Shown here piece by piece: positions 36,020 through 49,694 of a stretch of DNA of 64,000 nucleotides. Origin of the DNA: a virus; IMG/VR virus record IMGVR_UViG_3300009093_000036, positions 1 through 64,000 of that record. One strand, given 5' to 3'. Every line of letters starts with the position of its first letter. The first letter of the stretch is position 1. The position numbers and the translations under genes were made by a program. Below the pieces are notes generated by a model. The model made no database searches and was not told the DNA's origin. It saw nothing but the letters and a program-made list of their open reading frames with translations.

Positions 36020-36703
36020 TCAGGCCTTATACGCCTGCATTGCGTCGCTCAGACTGCGGCGCGGATTCATCGGGTCACTGCTGGCCGAGCGGGTCACGCC
36101 CGACTTCGCTGCGATCGGCGTGTTGCCGACCCGCTGCGACTTGTTCGAGCTGCCACGTAGCACGCCGAGCGTAGGCGCAGAAGGCACCGTAACCTTCGGG
36201 GTACCCGGCCCCGAAGGAGGACCTCCGAAGAGGCTGCTCAGCTTGTTCTCGGCCAAGTAGCTGTGGATGGCCTTGCGGGCGTGATGGAGCTCGATGCCTT
36301 CCTTCGCCGCGGCGAGCACGCCTCCACCGAGACCCGAGGTCAGGGCCTTGGCGGCGAGGTCTCCGCCGGTCTGCTGTGCGAGCTCCTTGGTGCCGCCGGC
36401 GAGTCGCGAAGAGAGGCCACCCTTGGCGTTCACGAAGCCCTTGGTGAAACGACCTGCGGTGTCGATCGCCGGCGCCGCAACGGAGGCGAGGCCAGCGGTC
36501 TGCCCGATGATCTTCCAGGGCTTCGGCTTCTGGAGCTTCGCTGCGGCCTGCTCGACTTCGTGTTCGTCGACCGACAGCTTCTGGACCTCGTCGACGAAGG
36601 CCGCCATCTGGGCTTCCTTCATCAGCGTCTGGACGTTCGTGGGGATGGAGCCCTTCCGGGACTTCAGCCGCTTGTCGTCGATGTCGAGGCCGTGCTGTTC
36701 CAC
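36020..36703 (-). CDS. Hypothetical protein with a Gly-zipper-like segment (possible internal/ejected virion protein)
   Basis: GTG start; ALTSGLGGGVLAAAK; in frame with the upstream gene across a single TAG. Confidence 0.6.
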   Translation of the reverse strand: MEQHGLDIDDKRLKSRKGSIPTNVQTLMKEAQMAAFVDEVQKLSVDEHEVEQAAAKLQKPKPWKIIGQTAGLASVAAPAIDTAGRFTKGFVNAKGGLSSRLAGGTKELAQQTGGDLAAKALTSGLGGGVLAAAKEGIELHHARKAIHSYLAENKLSSLFGGPPSGPGTPKVTVPSAPTLGVLRGSSNKSQRVGNTPIAAKSGVTRSASSDPMNPRRSLSDAMQAYKA

Positions 36704-36712
36704 CCCACAAGA

Positions 36713-39700
36713 CTATCCGAGGATGCCCCGCGTAGCCAAGACAGCTTGCACGTAGAGGAACACCGACAGGCGCTTCTCTTTCCGGGTGTCGAGACGGGCT
36801 GCCCGAGCAGTGTCCCGAGACGAGCGCTGGGCCGCCGCCGGATCGTCGGTTTCATTCGCATCCGTGGTCGTTAGGCCCAAGATGGTGTCGACACGATCGC
36901 CCTCAACGTTCGTCGTGAGCTGACGAAGGTCGTCGAAGTCTCCGAAGGCGCGAGAGTGGAAGCCCTCAACGCCTCGGGTGACAGACCCATCGTCGTCGAT
37001 CTCCAAGTTCGCGGTCCCGAACATGTCGACCATCGAAGCAATGGGACGCCACGTGTACGACTTCAAGAAGTCGTCGACGTCGAAGCGATTGCGGCGGATC
37101 ATCGAGTAGCCGTCGACCAGAGACGAGACCGCCTCCTCGATCGTTCCTCGTGCCGAGATCTCCGACAGCGTCGCCGGCGCTCCGATCTCAGAGGGTGTTC
37201 CAGCGGGGCCCGTGATCTCCGACGGATTGCTGTCGAGGGTCTCCGGAGGCTGCTCGGGCAGCGTGACCGGGGTGCTTGCTCCCAAAGTGACCGGAGAGTC
37301 GGGAGTCACCGAGCTCGCCCCAGAGGGATCACCACCGTCAGCCGATCGAGTCGACCGTCCTGTGGGATCGACGATCACGGTGGGGTCGACGATGCTGCCG
37401 GTTCCGAAGAAGTACGAGTAGAGGGACCCGATGTTCTGGCTGCGGTAGTTCTCGCCGTACCACGGCGGGAACGTGAGGTCCTCCGCCGGCAGATCGACGG
37501 TCGTGCGCTGATAGACGCCCAGCGTCTCAGTGATCTGGTATGCGCGGAACGTCACCGAGACCTCGCGCAACGCCGCATCGTCGCCGGCGTTGCCGGTACC
37601 TGAAGTTGCAACGAAGGACGACTGCGTGTCGCCCACGCTTCCAGCAAGAGCTGCGACCTCGGGAACCGACGATGCAGGCACCGCTGTGCCGACGACGACG
37701 CGAGTTCCTCGAATGCGCCCGGCACCTCCTCCAGGAACGAAGAGAGGCAGCGTCGTGCTTGATGTGTAGCGCTGCGAGCCTGTGGCGGAGGTAGAACGAC
37801 GACCTCGAACTGGACGCACCCGCTCGGAGCGAGCGTACTGATCGGTGACGTCCGTGACCGCTGTGATCTCCCCACCACGGGGTCCCGTAGTTCCAGTTGC
37901 AGGGGTATCCAGCATCGCCACGACGCTGCGCACCGAGGTGTTGCGTGTCCGCCGATAGCGACGAGGAGCTGCACGGTCATCGCCGAGGAACTCGGTCCTC
38001 TCATCCGTGACGCGGCCGTACATCATCTGGATCATGGTCTGGCCGCCGGTCTCGGCCGAGATGCTGTGCGTGATGGATGCCGGAGTCCCCAGGTAGTGAC
38101 TGTTCGGCTGCTGTGCCGTGAGGGCCTGCACGAGGTCTGCCGTGCGCTCGTCCGCCATCTCGCGCTGACGATTCTGCTCCTCCGCCGGCAAGTCAGATTG
38201 GACACCCACACCTTCGCCCTGCGATGCAGCTTCGGCGATCCGACGTGCGATCTCCTGGTTGACCTCCGTATCCGCGGAGTTGATGTCGTCGGCCTTGTAC
38301 TTGTCGATGACGAGCGCCGGGAAGCCGAGCACGACGAAGGGGTTGAACTTGCCCTGCACCTGGAGCTGCCGAGAGCGGAAGCGGTACTGGAAGAAGATGT
38401 GGTTCGCAGCAAGCTGAGCGTAGCCGACTCGCACACCGTCGATCATCACACTGCCACCACGCAGTGCATGCAAGTTCAAGTCGCTCATGCGCTCGAACTT
38501 CGGGATGATGCCCGTGTAGAGCTCGTGGTCCATGAGGTCCCGGATGAACCACGCCGGTGCATCTGCGAGGTCAGGAGGCTCGACTCCAGTACGACCGCGA
38601 CCGATGCTGGCCCCCGACCGCGATCCCAAGATCCTCGATGGCGCCATGTAGTAGCCATCGAACAAGAAGTCGGAGCCGAAGAACGCCGACGACGTGCGGA
38701 GCATGAGCCGCGAGACCTCGTCCATGAAGGTCCGGCCGTAGCTGAAGCTGCTGTAGAGCTCGGGGAAGAGAACGTTGCAACGTGGAGGAGCAACCATCCA
38801 GACGTCCGGCCGGTAGATCTGCGTGATGAGACGTGCCGGAGGATCGGGCTGCCGGTTGCCGGTCGCGACACGGCGCTGAAGCTGCGCGTTGACGATCGTC
38901 TCCATGTCGGCTGCGATCTGATCGCAGTACGAGGTGACCTGCTGCCCTTCAGAAGAGTCCGGAGCTCCGAAGGTGTTGTGAGAGGAGGGCCTTCGCGTGA
39001 GCTGTTCGATGCGCTGGAAGCGGACTGCGTTGACCACCAAGATCTGATGGACCTCCAAGTCACCCACGAACCGAGAGCGCTGGCTCACGGCAAGACGACG
39101 AGCGACACCAGCGGCCGTTCCACAGAGCGAGGCCAAGCGCGGAAGTTCAACTTGAAGGCCTCCGTTCTCCGAAGATAGACGGCTTGCCTCATCGGGCGTC
39201 GTCGACCGTGACTGACGGTCCTTCAGGTCGAGAGCTCGCTGCTTCAAGCGACGAGCTGCATTCACGACCGGCGTGTACGAGTCATTCGTCGTGATCGACA
39301 CCGTCTCGTACTGCGGTCGGTTCGGGTCGACCAGCGCCGGGATGTAGTGCGGCGACGTGATCGGGATGACCTCGTGGAAGATGTAGCGCTGAAGGGCGCT
39401 CAGGACGGCTCGAATGGAGACCTGCCGACCAAGACCTGAAAGAGCTCGGCGGAACAAGCTCCCGAAGCCGTTCGCCGACATCAGGCGGACCTCGTTCTGC
39501 TGCTCGAACGGATTCGCTCCGAGCATCTGCGTGATCTTCAGCCGGAGCTCCGCGATGCTGAAGAAGTCGTTCACGCCTCGGATGGCTCGGGTCCCGAAGT
39601 TCACACCTCCGATGGCTTCGATGATGTGGGTGATCGCTCCGAGCAGCGTGCCTCGCAGGTTCGGGTAGTTGCGAGGTGCTGTGTTCATCAGCCCGACGAT

Positions 39701-40261
39701 GATGTCGCCGTTGCCCTCCAAGAAGGAGTTGAAGACGGTCGTGGCGGCTCCAGTGAACGCAGCGCTGATGCCGCCGCCGTCGAGAGAGAAGCCCTGCACC
39801 TGGTACTGGAACGCGTAGTCCCAGTACATCGACCAGTCCATGCACTGGAGCACGATGCTCCGTGAGCTCCCGGTCTTGTCGACGGTGAAGCCGACGAGTT
39901 CGCCTCCGAAGAGGAGACGGTAGTTCTCGTTCTCCAGATCGGTGTCTTCCTGGGCGTCGGTCTGCTCCAGCCTCTCGGGCGGGATGATGCCGTCGAGGTC
40001 GGGATCACGGTCCTGGTTCTGGATGGCGATGTTGTCGCCGGCGACCCATGCCCGATCCGATGCAGGAGCTCCGCGATAGAAGTCGTAGAAGAAGAGATGG
40101 ACGAGCGTGCGAGGGCGAAGCTGAAGAGCGAGGTCGTTCGCCGGGATCTGAATCGAGCACACCGCGGGCTGGTTGGGCTGCGACTGCACCACCGCCGAGA
40201 TCACGGGAACCTCCACCCCTTCCAGGAAAAGGCGGATGTGGAGCTTCTGGGCGATCGTCAT
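36713..40261 (-). CDS. Large tail/baseplate hub-like protein
   Basis: 1182 aa; N-terminal RLFLEGVEVPVISAVV...CSIQIP and LLFGGELVG...SIVLQC.D fit hub-type (gp27/gp44-like) beta architecture. Ends in TAG. Confidence 0.6.
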   Translation of the reverse strand: MTIAQKLHIRLFLEGVEVPVISAVVQSQPNQPAVCSIQIPANDLALQLRPRTLVHLFFYDFYRGAPASDRAWVAGDNIAIQNQDRDPDLDGIIPPERLEQTDAQEDTDLENENYRLLFGGELVGFTVDKTGSSRSIVLQCMDWSMYWDYAFQYQVQGFSLDGGGISAAFTGAATTVFNSFLEGNGDIIVGLMNTAPRNYPNLRGTLLGAITHIIEAIGGVNFGTRAIRGVNDFFSIAELRLKITQMLGANPFEQQNEVRLMSANGFGSLFRRALSGLGRQVSIRAVLSALQRYIFHEVIPITSPHYIPALVDPNRPQYETVSITTNDSYTPVVNAARRLKQRALDLKDRQSRSTTPDEASRLSSENGGLQVELPRLASLCGTAAGVARRLAVSQRSRFVGDLEVHQILVVNAVRFQRIEQLTRRPSSHNTFGAPDSSEGQQVTSYCDQIAADMETIVNAQLQRRVATGNRQPDPPARLITQIYRPDVWMVAPPRCNVLFPELYSSFSYGRTFMDEVSRLMLRTSSAFFGSDFLFDGYYMAPSRILGSRSGASIGRGRTGVEPPDLADAPAWFIRDLMDHELYTGIIPKFERMSDLNLHALRGGSVMIDGVRVGYAQLAANHIFFQYRFRSRQLQVQGKFNPFVVLGFPALVIDKYKADDINSADTEVNQEIARRIAEAASQGEGVGVQSDLPAEEQNRQREMADERTADLVQALTAQQPNSHYLGTPASITHSISAETGGQTMIQMMYGRVTDERTEFLGDDRAAPRRYRRTRNTSVRSVVAMLDTPATGTTGPRGGEITAVTDVTDQYARSERVRPVRGRRSTSATGSQRYTSSTTLPLFVPGGGAGRIRGTRVVVGTAVPASSVPEVAALAGSVGDTQSSFVATSGTGNAGDDAALREVSVTFRAYQITETLGVYQRTTVDLPAEDLTFPPWYGENYRSQNIGSLYSYFFGTGSIVDPTVIVDPTGRSTRSADGGDPSGASSVTPDSPVTLGASTPVTLPEQPPETLDSNPSEITGPAGTPSEIGAPATLSEISARGTIEEAVSSLVDGYSMIRRNRFDVDDFLKSYTWRPIASMVDMFGTANLEIDDDGSVTRGVEGFHSRAFGDFDDLRQLTTNVEGDRVDTILGLTTTDANETDDPAAAQRSSRDTARAARLDTRKEKRLSVFLYVQAVLATRGILG

Positions 40262-40866: not shown

Positions 40867-42093
40867 TTACAGGTTCAGGCCCGGGACGCCGGCGGCGAGA
40901 TTGAGGGCTCCATCCGCCTGTCGAATGCCGAAGCTTCCGAAGAGCTGAATGCCGGCGAAGGCGGCTCGACCCAGCAACAGGTAGTTGGCACTTGGACGAC
41001 CGACGTTGACCCCTAGCTTCGCGAGCTGGCCACGGGCCTGGTTGTCGAGCTCCTCGGGGCTGTTCAGACGAAGGAGCTCCTGGACGCGGTTGAGCTCCTC
41101 CTGGTCGTACTGCGGCTGTGTGGTGTCGTGGACGAACGCTGTGTACTCGTCCTTCTGCTGCCAGATCGGGACACGCTCACCGTTCGACCCAGGAGCGGAC
41201 GGGAAGCTCGCCTGGTTCTCGATCGGCGGGACGTAGAGCTGGTTGCCGATGCCCTTGTTCGGGAAGGCGAGGCTGCGGCCGTAGAGCGTGTTCTTCGCCT
41301 GCTCGATCGCACGCTGGATCGTGAACGTCGCATCGTTCGCGAACCGCTGAGCGTCGGCGAGGAAGCCGGTGAGGCTGTCCTGATTGCCCAAGGACGACTG
41401 GACATCCGCGGTCGCTGCCGGGTCGTCCGGAGGAACGGTCGTGGGCGTCGGTCCGGGCGTCCGATCCGCCATCTCGTCGTTGTAGATGGGCGAGAAGATG
41501 CTGCCGACGTCGCCGATGATCGAGTAGTTCGTGCAGAACACCTGGAACGTCAGCGGGAGCTTGTACGGGTCCTCGACTGTCTGCACCGCCTGCGCCTGGA
41601 GCATGTAGCCCTCGATGACGACGTCATCGAAGTACAAGTACATCCGGGCGTTGCGTTCGAGCAGCTTCGTTCCTCGCAACGTGTCGTTGTAGTTCTTCCA
41701 CCACTCCGACTTCCAGTTGAAGTTCCGTGCGTTCAGGATGACAGCGTTGAAGGTGTAGATGCGGGGGCGCTCTCCGAAGAAGAAGATGTAGTCCTCTCCG
41801 AAGGTCTCCACGATCTGCTGCTTCTCGACGCGCTGCTCCTGAACGGACTGAAGGATGAAGTTCGAGTACTCGATGCTCTGACCGATGCCGTTGACATCAG
41901 TGGCGCTGCTGCTGTCGACGAGCGGGATGGGGCGACCGACGGCGTCGATGACCTTGATCGTGGCGTAGGTGTCCTTCTTCACCTCGATGCCACGCGTCGG
42001 TCGCCGCACGTTCTGTGAGGTACGGGTCTCCTGCGCGGCGTCGTTGAAGACGTCCTCGAAGGGAGAGGTCGTAACGCTGATGAAGACCGCCAC
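40867..42093 (-). CDS. Tail tube-like / tube-initiator baseplate protein
   Basis: NFILQSVQEQRVEKQQIVETFGEDYIFFFGERPRIYTF...LTFQVF; lies between the tape measure and hub genes. Confidence 0.55.
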   Translation of the reverse strand: MAVFISVTTSPFEDVFNDAAQETRTSQNVRRPTRGIEVKKDTYATIKVIDAVGRPIPLVDSSSATDVNGIGQSIEYSNFILQSVQEQRVEKQQIVETFGEDYIFFFGERPRIYTFNAVILNARNFNWKSEWWKNYNDTLRGTKLLERNARMYLYFDDVVIEGYMLQAQAVQTVEDPYKLPLTFQVFCTNYSIIGDVGSIFSPIYNDEMADRTPGPTPTTVPPDDPAATADVQSSLGNQDSLTGFLADAQRFANDATFTIQRAIEQAKNTLYGRSLAFPNKGIGNQLYVPPIENQASFPSAPGSNGERVPIWQQKDEYTAFVHDTTQPQYDQEELNRVQELLRLNSPEELDNQARGQLAKLGVNVGRPSANYLLLGRAAFAGIQLFGSFGIRQADGALNLAAGVPGLNL

Positions 42094-42101
42094 GCCGGAA
42101 T

Positions 42102-42109
42102 CCTATCAG
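42102..42109. promoter_or_regulatory. CCTATCAG element in a divergent gap
   Basis: Exact 8-mer between 42093 (-) and 42128 (+). Confidence 0.6.
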
Positions 42110-42127
42110 GAAGCTGAGGAAGCATCC

Positions 42128-43123
42128 ATGCCGCGCGCAGAACGACCGGAGCGAGCCTTCAAGGCTTGGTCCGACGTCGAAGTCGACAAGCTCAGCTTCT
42201 GGTGGGGCGTCTTCTCCATCCAGACGATCGCAAAGCGCCTCGGCAGAACCCCGGCCGGCGTATCAGAGAAAGCTCGCAAGACGAAGTTGGGGGCCTTCGC
42301 CCAAGACACCATCTCGATGAGAGAGTTCGTACGCTTGAGCGGGTACGAGGACTCTCGCATCCTCGCCAGCGCAGAGGCCATCGGTATCAAGCTCCAGCGC
42401 ATCGGCGTCGGGAACCCGAAGCGTCCGAAGGCGAAGAGGGCCTACGCAATCACCGAGGAGCAGCAAGAGAAGCTGCTCGCACACTTCGCAGAGCATCCGA
42501 ACACCTTCTATCCGAACAAGCCCGGCTCCGGTAAGACGACCCAGGGCGTCTGGGGCATCGGCCGGAAGCCTCCGCAGTGCCTCGACTGCAAGAGAAACGA
42601 CAGACCTCACTACTCCAAGGGCTTGTGCGATGGCTGCTACCAGAAGGTCATGCGCAGCAACCGAAAGAAGAACATGAACAACCCGCCGATTACCCACTTC
42701 CAGGGGAGCTACCGCTTCCTGTCGAACTTCTTTCCCGCCACCATCACGTTCGGAGGACTGAAGTACTACAGCGTCGAGCACGCCTTCCAAGCCGCCAAGA
42801 CGTTGGACCCTGTGAAGAGGGCCCCGCTCACCTTCGCACATGGCACCGAGCTGAGCTGGAATCCCGGCAAGGCGAAGGTGTACGGGCGCAGTCTCGAACT
42901 TCGTCCTGATTGGGAGGACGTCAAGTTCAAGGTGATGGGGCAGCTCCTTCGCGAGAAGTTCACGGAGCACGCCGATCTCGGGAAGAAGCTGATCGCCACT
43001 GGAACCCGCGAGCTCATCGAAGGCAACTACTGGGGCGACCGCATCTGGGGTGTCTGCGACGGCGAGGGGGAGAACCGCCTCGGCAAGTTGCTGATGGAGA
43101 TTCGAGAGGAACTACAGAAATGA
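42128..43123 (+). CDS. Fusion: HTH-like + CxxC..H..C zinc finger + C-terminal NADAR (YbiA-like) domain
   Basis: NADAR motifs FLSNF, SVEHAFQAAK, AKVYGR, RPDWE.VK..VM...L..KF, LIEGNYWGDRIWG, GENRLGKLLMEIR. N-terminal WSD.E..L...SI..IAKRLGRT..GV and CLDC...HYSKGLCDGCY. ATG at 42128. Confidence 0.85.
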   Translation: MPRAERPERAFKAWSDVEVDKLSFWWGVFSIQTIAKRLGRTPAGVSEKARKTKLGAFAQDTISMREFVRLSGYEDSRILASAEAIGIKLQRIGVGNPKRPKAKRAYAITEEQQEKLLAHFAEHPNTFYPNKPGSGKTTQGVWGIGRKPPQCLDCKRNDRPHYSKGLCDGCYQKVMRSNRKKNMNNPPITHFQGSYRFLSNFFPATITFGGLKYYSVEHAFQAAKTLDPVKRAPLTFAHGTELSWNPGKAKVYGRSLELRPDWEDVKFKVMGQLLREKFTEHADLGKKLIATGTRELIEGNYWGDRIWGVCDGEGENRLGKLLMEIREELQK

Positions 43124-43668
43124 CTACGCCCGAAGAGAAGATCAAGAAGCTCGACTTCACGAAGGTAACGCGGGACGCCGACAAGACGCGCACCAGGATT
43201 CTCATCAAGCCCCGCTACGGGATGCAGAGCTTGGAGATCGTGTGTGGTCGCACCAACCTGAACCGCAACCGAGACCGTACGCCTTCATACGAACGGCTCA
43301 CGGCCCGGGCTTCATACGGTGTCATCGACTTCGAGCACGACAGCGCGTACATCTTCCAGATCCCGCTCGTCGGTGTAGCACTCGACTTTGTCGAAAACTC
43401 GACCGTCTACTACAGCGGGATCCTGTTGGGACGCGACCCCGAAGACCTCCGCATCTCGTTGGACACCGACTACGATCCGACGAAGCTGAAGGGCGCCTAC
43501 AAGTGCAACGGGAAGGAGTGTCGCTCAGGCAAGTCGCACATGATCGTTCCCGAAGGGTACTGGGCGGGCCCGGAGATGAAGGTCCAGACCCTCTACTTGC
43601 AGCTCGTTGGTGCCGAGGTTTCCGTGATCTTGAGCACGCCAAGCAAGGAGGACCCTGACCACGGCTGA
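43120..43668 (+). CDS. Hypothetical protein (MTTPEEKIKK...)
   Basis: ATGA-coupled to the NADAR fusion; Shine-Dalgarno GAGG. Confidence 0.65.
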   Translation: MTTPEEKIKKLDFTKVTRDADKTRTRILIKPRYGMQSLEIVCGRTNLNRNRDRTPSYERLTARASYGVIDFEHDSAYIFQIPLVGVALDFVENSTVYYSGILLGRDPEDLRISLDTDYDPTKLKGAYKCNGKECRSGKSHMIVPEGYWAGPEMKVQTLYLQLVGAEVSVILSTPSKEDPDHG

Positions 43669-43675
43669 GACGCCT

Positions 43676-43746
43676 GCCCCCGTAGCTGAGCGGGAAAGCA
43701 GCGGATTCTAAATCCGTGGTCGTGGGTTCGATCCCCACCGGGGGCG
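43676..43746 (+). tRNA. tRNA with CUA anticodon (amber suppressor), CCA not encoded
   Basis: Acceptor GCCCCCG/CGGGGGC + G73; D arm GCT..AGC with GG; anticodon stem GCGGA/TCCGT with 7-nt loop TT-CTA-AA (anticodon 43708-43710); short variable loop; T arm GTGGG-TTCGATC-CCCAC. Confidence 0.9.
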
Positions 43747-43815
43747 AGCAGAAGCAATCACGTTTCTTCCTATAAAACAGATAGAAGAGACAACCTCTTC
43801 CGGAGAAACACGAAC

Positions 43816-44241
43816 ATGAACCAGAACATTCAGAAGGTCCTTCAGCTCGGCGCCCTCATCGATCGCAACAACGAGACGGTTCGCCGACTTCAAGAAGAGA
43901 ACAAGCAACACATGGAGGTCATCGAGTCCCTCGTGGTCCACAAGAGGGACAACCAGCGTCCCTCGAAGAAGATCGAGGACCGTCTCGTCAAGCAGATCAA
44001 GCGCGCCTTCTTCCGTTCGGAGGAGGAGTACGAGAAGACGATCGTCCAAGCGCTCAAGGGCGGGCCTCCCCTCTGCCGTGCGGACTTGGTGCGAAAGACT
44101 CACATCTCGATGAAGACGCTGGCCAAGCTGATGCCACGGCTGGCCGAACGAAACGTGGTGAGGCCCGTGTCAGCCCTCAAGAAGCTGAGTGACGGGCGTG
44201 AGATCAAGGTGCAGGGATGGTCCGCCGGAAAAGCGGCCTGA
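43816..44241 (+). CDS. Coiled-coil + C-terminal winged-HTH-like protein
   Basis: LCRADLVRKTHISMKTLAKLMPRLAERNVV resembles a wHTH. Confidence 0.55.
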   Translation: MNQNIQKVLQLGALIDRNNETVRRLQEENKQHMEVIESLVVHKRDNQRPSKKIEDRLVKQIKRAFFRSEEEYEKTIVQALKGGPPLCRADLVRKTHISMKTLAKLMPRLAERNVVRPVSALKKLSDGREIKVQGWSAGKAA

Positions 44242-44888
44242 ACTACCCCGGAGACAACCCGCAGAAGGCCGACTCCCGCAACCTGCTCTACCGGACCGTG
44301 ATGTCTTACTGGAAGGCCGCCAAGCCTTCTGGAGACATCATCGTCTTGGCAGGGCATGAAGCGAAGGACGTCGGCCCTCTGCGAGATTATCTTCGGTGGC
44401 CGGCATCTCGCGTCCTTTTCGTGGACATCGACGAACGAGGACTGACCCAAGCTCAGAAAGACTGGCCAGGCGTACGTGTTCATCACGGCGACCTCAGCGA
44501 AGCCGTCAAGCAGGTCAAGCAGATCGCATTGCTGAACTTGGACTTCATGGGCAGCTTCAACGATGACGTGGAGGCTGCCCTGACTGCGGCTGAGGGAAAA
44601 GTCAGTCCACATGGGGTGGTCGCGTACACGTTCTACCGAGGAAGAGAGCACCGATCTCAGCATTCCTTGCAGAAGAACTTGTTCGCAGCTCGCCGTCACA
44701 TCGACCTGAAGAGCTCCGACTACGAGACGATGCGCTGGGTGGCAGCAGGGGCACGACTACAGCGTGGTCTCGTGTTCGAGAACCCTGAGCTCCTGTTGAC
44801 CCATCGCTATCGTTCATCGAGTGCAGCCATGGGCATGCTGGCCATCGCCAACGAGCCGAAGGCCAAGGGGAGTCGACGCAGCAGGTGA
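44217..44888 (+). CDS. Class I SAM-dependent methyltransferase-fold protein (substrate unknown)
   Basis: VLAG loop, VLFVDID (acidic end of beta2), HHGDL, LLNLDFMG, VSPHGVVAYTF. Start uncertain. Confidence 0.5.
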   Translation: MVRRKSGLNYPGDNPQKADSRNLLYRTVMSYWKAAKPSGDIIVLAGHEAKDVGPLRDYLRWPASRVLFVDIDERGLTQAQKDWPGVRVHHGDLSEAVKQVKQIALLNLDFMGSFNDDVEAALTAAEGKVSPHGVVAYTFYRGREHRSQHSLQKNLFAARRHIDLKSSDYETMRWVAAGARLQRGLVFENPELLLTHRYRSSSAAMGMLAIANEPKAKGSRRSR

Positions 44889-45163
44889 CGTCCCTGCGGA
44901 GACACAGCGATCGCAGTGAGGGCGTTTCCGAGATCGGGTTCCAAGAACTCGGACACGGGAACGCCCTCTGCGCGCGCAGACGAAACGACTCGGCGAAGTT
45001 CTTCTTCGTTTGCCGTCTCCAGAAGCACGAGCGTGTTGGATGTCGTGAACCACTCCCGGTCCACGGCAGGATGCTCCTCCGTGAACGCGCGGATGGCGTG
45101 ACAGAGCTGCGCCGCTCGGAGTCCCGGAGCGAGGTCCTGTCGCGAGACCAGGAAGAGCTTCAT
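44807..45163 (-). CDS. Peptidyl-tRNA hydrolase type 2 (Pth2)-like protein
   Basis: MKLFLVSRQDL.PG..AAQLCHA, W....NTLVLL, F.EPD.G...TAIA..P, LLRRLPL. ATG at 45163 overlaps the upstream TGA. Ends in TAG. Confidence 0.75.
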   Translation of the reverse strand: MKLFLVSRQDLAPGLRAAQLCHAIRAFTEEHPAVDREWFTTSNTLVLLETANEEELRRVVSSARAEGVPVSEFLEPDLGNALTAIAVSPQGRHLLRRLPLAFGSLAMASMPMAALDER

Positions 45164-45588
45164 GCGGCCCTCCGGGGACGCCCAGAGGCCTTCATCTCGC
45201 GAGCTCTTTCCTTTGCCTGCCGGAGATGCTCGGCGTACGACGCGAGCTCCTCGTCGCTGGGCTTGGCCTCCAGCCACGCCTTCACCGCACCCTCGTCGAC
45301 GTCAGCCCCCGCCCAGTAGGCGACGCTGCTCGCGCTGGGCGGCTCCTTCGTGAAGCGCTCGACCTCCCAGTACCTGCGCCCGCGCACGAAGGCGTACGCG
45401 AGCCCCGTGTACCGAATCTGCGAGCGCAGATCGGAGCCATGGCCCCAACACATGAGCATGGTGCTGTGCTGCTGTGCCGTGCGCTCCGCGAACGGGATGC
45501 GCTTGAGCGAGAGGCGCTCCTGAGTGTTGGCGACCTTCGACTTCACGAGCTCACCGAGCTCGAACTTCAGAACCATCTTCTCTTTCAT
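45160..45588 (-). CDS. Hypothetical protein (MKEKMVLKF...)
   Basis: Shine-Dalgarno AGGAG, ATG at 45588, strong codon bias. Confidence 0.7.
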   Translation of the reverse strand: MKEKMVLKFELGELVKSKVANTQERLSLKRIPFAERTAQQHSTMLMCWGHGSDLRSQIRYTGLAYAFVRGRRYWEVERFTKEPPSASSVAYWAGADVDEGAVKAWLEAKPSDEELASYAEHLRQAKERAREMKASGRPRRAA

Positions 45589-49624: not shown

Positions 49625-49647
49625 CGAGCCGGAGTCTAGCGCATCCT

Positions 49648-49655
49648 CCTATCAG
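49648..49655. promoter_or_regulatory. CCTATCAG element in a divergent gap
   Basis: Exact 8-mer between the tape-measure start (49624, -) and 49695 (+). Confidence 0.6.
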
Positions 49656-49694
49656 AAGCGTGGGGATGCAGATGCCCCTATCCAAGGAGATCCT

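Follow-up and report, generated by a model that had tools for sequence, protein, structure and literature searches.

A conserved CUA tRNA linked to Pth2 in a high-GC phage that keeps the standard genetic code

Introduction

Xanthomonas phage XacN1 carries two tRNAs with the anticodon CUA, 18 amber stops and a peptidyl-tRNA hydrolase, and no target of its suppressors was found (PMC5852040). A tRNA(cta) is also annotated in Sinorhizobium phage Phosso (PV764938.1), and phage Atu_ph07 encodes an opal suppressor together with two Pth genes (PMC6102473). Borges et al. described suppressor tRNAs both in gut phages that are recoded and in a relative that keeps the standard code, and proposed low GC content and stop loss as the route to recoding (bioRxiv 10.1101/2021.08.26.457843). 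A related group of systems has been read as ribosome rescue, namely Pth2 in jumbo phages (PMC7824862) and the tRNA arrays of cluster C mycobacteriophages, which include a PTH2-like gene and a transfer-messenger RNA (tmRNA) (PMC5966550). Here, we describe a CUA tRNA gene in the first 64 kb (hereafter the window) of the IMG/VR virus record IMGVR_UViG_3300009093_000036, a phage genome of 195,355 bp (G000) that originates from a rhizosphere metagenome and is rated 100% complete. The tRNA is real and, judged by its sequence, very probably functional. In the reading that we consider somewhat better than an even bet, it is a working phage-encoded UAG suppressor and part of a recurrent tRNA-CUA/Pth2 phage unit, which would cause partial read-through and whose likely benefit is tolerance of in-frame UAG codons.

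The phage resembles XacN1 in its standard code, its high-GC, soil- or plant-associated setting, the continued use of TAG as a stop, the lack of an identified read-through target and the presence of a peptidyl-tRNA hydrolase gene. Unlike the type represented by XacN1 and Phosso, in which the suppressor lies among dozens of tRNAs in an array, the tRNA described here stands alone in a small accessory island and shows compensatory conservation. As in recoded phages (crAss-like and Lak phages, in which TAG encodes Gln), a phage tRNA-CUA would depend on host synthetases; those phages, however, have a low GC content, prefer TAA and have nearly lost the TAG stop, whereas this genome has 62.5% GC, prefers TGA and uses TAG for 12% of its stops. 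It shares with the proposed rescue kits an archaeo-eukaryotic-type Pth2 and a tmRNA in a large phage, but suppressor tRNAs are unmentioned in those reports (PMC7824862, PMC5966550), and the partner here is a lone CUA tRNA and not an array. The kind of system has therefore already been published; particular to this case are the lone tRNA of a high-GC phage, the demonstrable purifying selection on it and a Pth2 partner that is not gated by an early in-frame TAG. An initial annotation of the window had stated that phage suppressors are mostly reported from recoded, low-GC phages. This statement can be kept only in a softened form, as CUA suppressors are on record from standard-code jumbo phages of high-GC hosts (XacN1, PMC5852040).

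Results

A canonical tRNA with an amber suppressor anticodon

The gene encodes a 71-nt canonical tRNA without an encoded CCA. ARAGORN, suggested as a check in the initial annotation, called it as the single tRNA of the 64-kb window (43675-43747 (+), anticodon cta), and the Rfam RF00005 match covers 43676-43746 end to end (model positions 1-71) with 66.7 bits (E 2.5e-12; gathering cut-off, 29 bits). The acceptor stem comprises 7 bp (GCCCCCG/CGGGGGC) and is followed by a G discriminator (G73). The core nucleotides U8, A14, G18 and G19 are all found, the variable loop has 4 nt, and the T arm reads GUGGG-UUCGAUC-CCCAC. A 5-bp anticodon stem (GCGGA/UCCGU) closes the loop UUCUAAA, which comprises U33, C34-U35-A36, A37 and A38; U33 and a purine at position 37, in a loop of 7 nt, are the features expected around an amber suppressor anticodon. 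A36-A37-A38 is the context typical of natural tRNAs that read UNN codons. Both programs and the direct reading of the sequence are thus in agreement with the cloverleaf, the GCGGA/TCCGT stem and the CUA loop as originally proposed. Infernal and ARAGORN detected no second tRNA in the whole genome, which makes the CUA tRNA the sole tRNA of 195 kb.

ARAGORN prints the gene as 'tRNA-Pyl', a label that it gives to every CUA anticodon. A tRNA-Pyl identity was rejected on the basis of the ordinary cloverleaf (G18-G19, T-loop UUCGA, 5-bp anticodon stem, 66.7 bits); pyl genes were not searched for.

The source run was also assembled independently by Logan; there, the stretch lies in one 52-kb contig with the tRNA unchanged. 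Because this assembly and the orthologues from other samples agree on the loop, the assembly error that had been a concern for the initial annotation can be ruled out. The sequencing runs that hold the stretch are DNA runs, with no RNA run listed; small shares of the stretch in one soil and one freshwater run correspond to tRNAs of other organisms or to short pieces. It is scarcely credible that the gene is no functional suppressor at all, whether because errors in assembly or sequencing altered a sense tRNA, because it is a pseudogene or because it serves as a tRNA-like signal for attachment or processing. One metagenomic contig may always contain errors, but two assemblies of the source run concur, orthologues of other samples share the CUA loop, and the cloverleaf is full-length and high-scoring. 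In addition, a pattern scan of 185,579 prokaryotic (bacterial) species genomes returned 0 hits for this tRNA build; it thus gave no lead to a host or prophage, and the gene does not represent a host tRNA copied into an attP site.

Compensatory changes preserve the tRNA in related phages

A sister genome from another sample (G001; 195,774 bp with terminal repeats) shows 85% nucleotide identity over 161 kb and a median protein identity of 84.5%. It encodes exactly one tRNA, which has the anticodon CUA and is located at the syntenic site. A third CUA tRNA occupies the same site in L045 (195,992 bp; 77% amino acid (aa) identity in the neighbouring 408-aa protein). The three syntenic copies differ at about one quarter of their positions, and the differences include changes on both sides of the acceptor stem (2:71 C-G to G-C; 3:70 C-G to U-A), the anticodon stem (30:40 G-C to A-U; 31:39 A-U to U-A) and the T stem (50:64 U-A to C-G). 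The UUCUAAA loop and G73 are invariant among them. When eight CUA tRNAs of the same build are compared, 10 of the 23 pairs show compensatory change; the five non-syntenic members were retrieved with a loop-fixing pattern, and conservation of the anticodon is thus read from the three syntenic copies only. Since the stems are kept by compensatory changes with the loop and G73 unchanged, the tRNA is under selection and is not a decaying gene. All orthologues keep CUA and none has a sense anticodon; the comparison with relatives proposed in the initial annotation thus came out in favour of the suppressor.

Other tRNAs were observed on the other side of the 408-aa gene in relatives. A tRNA-Asn(GUU) occurs there in L045 (11243-11393, together with a tRNA-Gln(CUG) that is unrelated to the suppressor), L046 (11290-11365) and L048 (11285-11359), and none occurs at this place in the window, which suggests that the tRNA sets of the clade turn over fast.

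TAG is an ordinary stop in the genome

Genes were called with a simple codon-usage caller trained on long open reading frames (ORFs) with a high GC content at third codon positions (GC3). The 254 genes cover 94% of the genome under the standard code (code 11) and end with TGA (212), TAG (30) or TAA (11), so that TAG terminates approximately 12% of genes; at least the NADAR gene and the TAG-ended Pth2 gene, both real, escaped the caller. The six TAG stops listed in the initial annotation (2908, 14764, 14767, 23000, 36713 and 44807) are all real in the sequence, and its view that a standard-code, high-GC phage with TGA as the dominant stop and TAG still in use encodes a true CUA tRNA is borne out genome-wide. 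Reading TAG as sense does not systematically lengthen ORFs in this genome. Among 25 orthologue pairs of TAG-ended genes in the comparison with G001, TAG is kept in 18 and replaced by TAA in 3 and TGA in 4, and swaps in the reverse direction occur too. TAG therefore behaves as an ordinary stop, and the tRNA is no sign of an alternative code in the phage. A recoded phage of the 'code 15' kind was rejected, as no block of recoded genes is present, 94% of the genome is coding, TAG ends 30 genes and a single TAG lies opposite a sense codon. No genes for a release factor, a CCA-adding enzyme or SmpB were found in the phage genome, which therefore relies on the host for them. The TAG share of stops is 5/69 in tRNA-bearing loci and 17/96 in others (p=0.06), which is a hint only.

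The codon usage of the genome (GC3 of approximately 85%) makes codons one step from TAG (GAG, AAG, CAG, TAC, TCG, TGG and TTG) common. Because of these codons, GAG, AAG and CAG among them, most of the nonsense target is TAG: computed from codon usage, 70% of the possible single-base nonsense mutations produce TAG, 14-19% TGA and 11-16% TAA, whatever the transition bias. An amber suppressor thus covers most of the nonsense target while few true stops are affected, which is a calculation and not a proof of benefit.

Two further features of trinucleotide usage were observed. TAA/TTA occurs 139 times on both strands of G000 (356 in G001), in comparison with approximately 2,500 expected from base composition, and the TTA codon is used once among 61,209 codons of G000. 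The sequences TAGGAT or TAGACT are located 7-10 nt upstream of the start codons of many large structural genes (for example, window 36703-36720 and 49625-49660; genome 139892, 175833 and 186646) and form a candidate -10-like element for late transcripts with short leaders. Because they precede start codons, TAG is often the nearest upstream in-frame stop.

Pth2 accompanies the CUA tRNA

The most informative context of the tRNA is its link to Pth2 and tmRNA. A Pth2-type peptidyl-tRNA hydrolase gene (PF01981, 32.7 bits and 33.1 bits; cut-off, 23 bits) lies 1.06 kb from the tRNA. Its ATG at 45163 overlaps the TGA of the upstream gene, its stop is TAG, and no in-frame TAG precedes the stop. The distance between Pth2 and the CUA tRNA is 1.1-2.2 kb in G000, G001 and G002, and the two genes are adjacent in the unrelated contig L029, where the ORF directly behind the tRNA is a Pth2 (65 bits) with TAG as its third codon. 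In the clade, gain and loss of the tRNA and of Pth2 coincide: both are found in three of ten loci (the window, G001 and L045) and neither in the other seven (L046-L049 and L173-L175), including L173, which lacks both although it keeps the NADAR gene.

The association extends to other phages. In a first sample from IMG/VR and a phage collection, Pth2 was present in 5/5 CUA records and 0/22 tRNA-bearing controls. A second, independent pattern scan found it in 12 of 34 CUA records and in none of 41 searchable non-CUA records, which mostly carry Arg(UCU) (p=2e-5); the combined counts are 17/39 and 0/63. In nine of the 12 records of the second scan, Pth2 lies within approximately 3 kb of the tRNA, and in seven within approximately 1 kb; the CUA tRNA is alone in the fetched locus in five of the nine. 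A literature search found no published link between suppressor tRNAs and Pth2.

An early TAG (codon 3-8) interrupts 8 of 11 CUA-linked Pth2 genes, one of them from a phage with 68% GC. The Pth2 proteins of G000, G001 and L045 begin with Met/Val-Lys-Leu-Phe and lack an early TAG, so that the clade carries an ungated version of the tRNA-CUA/Pth2 unit; the window Pth2 is most similar to Pth2 proteins that have the early TAG. A search for gates of this kind (a start, a few codons and TAG) before all 254 genes yielded no convincing case. Two genes have an ATG 2-3 codons upstream, where the Shine-Dalgarno sequence is absent or the ORF is not conserved in G001. In L045 (6900-7030), the TAG stop of the gene upstream of Pth2 is in frame with the GTG start of Pth2 and lies two codons ahead of it; a fused product would arise by read-through in L045 and not in G000 or G001.

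A full-length, one-piece tmRNA was identified at 129513-129899 (-) of the genome by ARAGORN and Rfam RF00023 (154 bits), with the ARAGORN-predicted tag ANDSSYAQPVLANAA. G001 also encodes a tmRNA, and neither G000 nor G001 has an SmpB gene.

Phage contigs of approximately 50% GC (L002, L029, L050 and L051) carry the same tRNA build, and its anticodon arm is identical. In these contigs, long ORFs cover a share of 0.67-0.82 of the DNA with TAG as a stop and of 0.82-0.89 with TAG as a sense codon, and the phages may be TAG-recoded. Behind the CUA tRNA and the TAG-at-codon-3 Pth2, L029 (2057-2134 (-)) and L050 (10395-10472 (+)) have a further tRNA-like gene, the anticodon loop of which comprises 8 nt (ARAGORN 'gtaa').

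These contigs bear on the explanation that the tRNA is a near-neutral passenger. The tRNA and Pth2 would have been acquired from phages that use the unit, either TAG-recoded or gated, after which the gate was lost and the tRNA became poorly charged or expressed. The shared build in contigs whose ORFs grow when TAG is sense, the early TAG in most CUA-linked Pth2 genes and its absence from G000, G001 and L045, and the patchy presence in the clade are all consistent with such a history. Drift, however, would not be expected to retain all stems, the loop and the discriminator in three lineages that differ at about one quarter of tRNA positions, and this is the only tRNA that the phage has retained. 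We therefore regard a passenger as unlikely.

A single in-frame TAG in the comparison with the sister genome

The comparison with G001 revealed one case of TAG opposite a sense codon. The TAG at genome position 111,755 is codon 50 of a small gene (genome 111548-111904 (-)); in G001, this gene forms one 117-aa ORF with CAG as the corresponding codon. A third homologue (P0123, 60% identical), from an unrelated contig, is also one uninterrupted ORF. The TAG is located in a variable, Lys-rich linker, and three codons beyond it lies an internal ATG that is conserved and has a Shine-Dalgarno-like sequence.

Read-through of particular genes

In 11 of the 30 TAG-ended genes, the reading frame continues into the next gene with no other stop in between. 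In the most prominent case, a 227-aa ORF is in frame three codons downstream of the 1182-aa gene (36713-40261), and the 9-nt in-frame spacing is kept in G001, L045, L046 and L048. The stop of the 1182-aa gene is TAA in L045, TGA in L047 and L049, and TAG in L046 and L048, which have no tRNA within 10 kb of the site. A fusion of the 1182-aa and 227-aa products as a conserved feature was rejected, since L045 has the tRNA and yet TAA at the junction.

Programmed read-through, in which minor C-terminally extended or fused phage proteins would be produced from this junction and ten more TAG-ended candidates, might account for the in-frame arrangement and the kept spacing. The changing stops of the 1182-aa gene, with TAA in a tRNA-bearing relative and TAG where the site lacks the tRNA, argue against it, as do the replacements of TAG by TAA or TGA in 7/25 orthologue pairs, three of them at in-frame junctions. 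A Shine-Dalgarno sequence and a start codon of their own are present at most junctions, and a terminator hairpin is located in one. The in-frame excess over TGA-ended genes (11/22 vs 22/82, p=0.07) is partly explained by the spacing between Shine-Dalgarno sequence and start. This explanation is improbable, and the timed read-through of particular genes suggested in the initial annotation is unsupported, as the stops at candidate junctions become TAA or TGA in relatives.

Charged amino acid and origin of the tRNA

A nearest-neighbour comparison of the tRNA with 156 labelled phage tRNAs did not single out an isotype. The best full-length match in cultured phages is the tRNA-Lys(CUU) of Arthrobacter phage Atuin (81%), which shares the unusual D arm and the 4-nt variable loop; tRNA-Arg(UCU) and tRNA-Asn(GUU) match the body at 78%. 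The G001 copy matches no isotype above 72%. The origin from tRNA-Arg(UCU) first suggested is consequently not favoured, with Lys(CUU) at 81%, Arg(UCU) at 78% and a sister copy that matches nothing well. The discriminator is G, whereas an origin from tRNA-Lys would lead one to expect A73. We agree with the initial annotation that the charged amino acid is not readable from the sequence, the isotype matches being indecisive. In E. coli, tRNAs given a CUA anticodon are mostly charged by LysRS or GlnRS, because U35 is read by both enzymes. Gln would fit the one TAG opposite CAG, which however proves nothing.

The accessory island and its transcription unit

The features of the island are given in Table 1. 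The CTATCAG motif is a putative promoter, from which the tRNA-bearing transcript probably starts. The NADAR domain (PF08719, 87.3 bits on ORF 41969-43120) occupies the C-terminal half of its protein, the N-terminal part of which is D5-like, and the gene, which starts with ATG at 42128, is kept in G001, L045 and L173. The next gene ends with TGA at 43666-43668, which places the tRNA 7 nt past the stop of the NADAR operon, as first noted; in G001, the tRNA directly follows the NADAR gene. In light of these two arrangements, the tRNA is most likely cut from the 3' end of the NADAR mRNA.

Table 1. Features of the tRNA-bearing island (window coordinates).
Feature	Position	Strand	Basis
Promoter-like motif CTATCAG and purine-rich stretch	42103..42122	+	Sequence read, directly before NADAR ATG
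331-aa gene, C-terminal NADAR domain	42128..43123	+	PF08719, phrog_1017
182-aa gene	43120..43668	+	Gene call; start overlaps NADAR stop (ATGA), ends 7 nt before tRNA
tRNA, anticodon CUA (amber suppressor type)	43676..43746	+	ARAGORN, Rfam RF00005, orthologue compensatory changes
141-aa gene	43816..44241	+	Gene call, downstream of tRNA, part of island
223-aa protein, class I S-adenosylmethionine (SAM)-methyltransferase fold	44217..44888	+	ESM Atlas structure neighbours
Pth2-type peptidyl-tRNA hydrolase, 118 aa	44807..45163	-	PF01981; convergent with tRNA unit
142-aa gene	45160..45588	-	Gene call; coupled by ATGA to Pth2; sub-threshold Pfam match only

The 182-aa protein has no Pfam, PHROG or Atlas match, and the related-locus search found no relatives of it; its counterpart in L045 is a 176-aa gene, and G001 has none. 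The 141-aa protein has only sub-threshold Pfam and PHROG matches, a 51% identical orthologue in G001 and a 146-aa counterpart in L045. Structure neighbours of the 223-aa protein include methyltransferase families at template-modelling (TM) values of 0.6-0.78, with the tRNA G26 methyltransferase family at TM 0.71; it has no Pfam hit.

The island is located in a variable hotspot between conserved structural genes. The neighbouring 408-aa structural protein (window 40867-42093 (-)) has more than 300 homologues on 160-200-kb soil metagenome contigs, which mark a large clade of uncultured phages. In a tblastn search, the best PolA match from a cultured phage is less than 30% identical, megablast of the island against cultured phages gave no match, and related-locus searches for the 1226-aa protein and the PolA alignment found only G001.

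The position of the island, which opens with the NADAR gene, is one reason to consider that the suppressor is a weapon. It would target UAG-ended genes of the host (defence or toxin genes) or of co-infecting phages, extending and disabling their products or overloading host quality control, and Pth2 and tmRNA would protect phage translation. In the unrelated G002, the CUA tRNA lies between a caspase-domain gene (L002:10-711, PF00656, 70 bits) and an Acb2/Tad1-hairpin gene (L002:1276-1779, PF24729, 51 bits), surroundings that look like a counter-defence neighbourhood. That no phage target was found for the CUA tRNAs of XacN1 (PMC5852040) also fits. On the other hand, no target is known, and at least 30 phage genes that end in TAG, including Pth2, would be hit too. 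A weapon is an unlikely explanation.

Discussion

We favour a working UAG suppressor, and from the gene anatomy and conservation, which were observed directly, we infer the following steps of transcription, processing, charging and competition with RF1. A phage-type promoter would drive the NADAR operon, in which the tRNA is transcribed last. RNase P and 3' processing by the host would excise the tRNA, and a host enzyme would add CCA. A host synthetase that reads U35 would charge it, most likely with Lys or Gln, and the charged tRNA would compete with RF1 at UAG. Because the genome keeps the standard code, the outcome would be partial read-through and not reassignment. Expected by-products are ribosomes that enter 3' regions or reach mRNA ends and dropped peptidyl-tRNA, which Pth2 and the phage tmRNA would clear. 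Tolerance of in-frame UAG is the most likely benefit, with interference with the host as the alternative. The one in-frame TAG opposite the CAG of the sister genome would correspond to the stage that, as has been proposed, comes before TAG reassignment in phages, and it fits the first step of a model in which a stop is rare but dangerous, a suppressor follows and in-frame stops then accumulate.

Several observations weigh against a suppressor that serves UAG tolerance. TAG-ended genes lack back-up stops, with a median extension of 62 codons as compared with 31.5 after TGA, and read-through should therefore cost the phage. The in-frame TAG is a lone case in the genome, and, because it lies in a variable linker beside a conserved ATG with a Shine-Dalgarno-like sequence, the gene could equally be suppressed or a tolerated gene split. 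The tRNA is missing at the site in the close relatives L173 (81%) and L046-L049; it is therefore dispensable there or encoded elsewhere in those genomes. The co-variation of the tRNA and Pth2 in the clade concerns a whole five-gene island and not two genes alone. The CUA records used to establish the wider association hold twice the DNA of the controls (4.1 vs 2.0 Mb) and include more jumbo phages, and some are perhaps related. Pth2 is known to occur in jumbo phages. Finally, selection for nonsense buffering is second-order and usually weak.

A broader reading goes beyond the suppressor itself and is more tentative; we hold it possible, yet doubtful. The tRNA-CUA and Pth2 would form a mobile two-gene unit that is exchanged across phages of differing GC content and size. 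Pth2 would make the suppressor affordable by recycling, with tmRNA, the leftovers of read-through. Most carriers would gate Pth2 by an early UAG, whereas this clade would carry the unit ungated, in a genome that is beginning to accumulate in-frame UAG.

Where 'tRNA-Pyl' is the lone tRNA call in a phage, genome annotation should include a check for Pth2 and in-frame TAGs. The link to Pth2 and tmRNA provides a testable idea of how a phage affords a suppressor, and it may account for 'orphan' suppressors in the literature, for instance those of XacN1. Suppressor tRNAs are a proposed entry to code change in phages, in a model that was built on low-GC gut phages with TAG nearly unused; here, a conserved suppressor occurs in a TGA-preferring, high-GC soil phage in which one gene in eight ends in TAG. 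If the tRNA-CUA/Pth2 pair is indeed a mobile unit, it would open a route to reassignment that needs neither low GC nor the prior loss of TAG stops.

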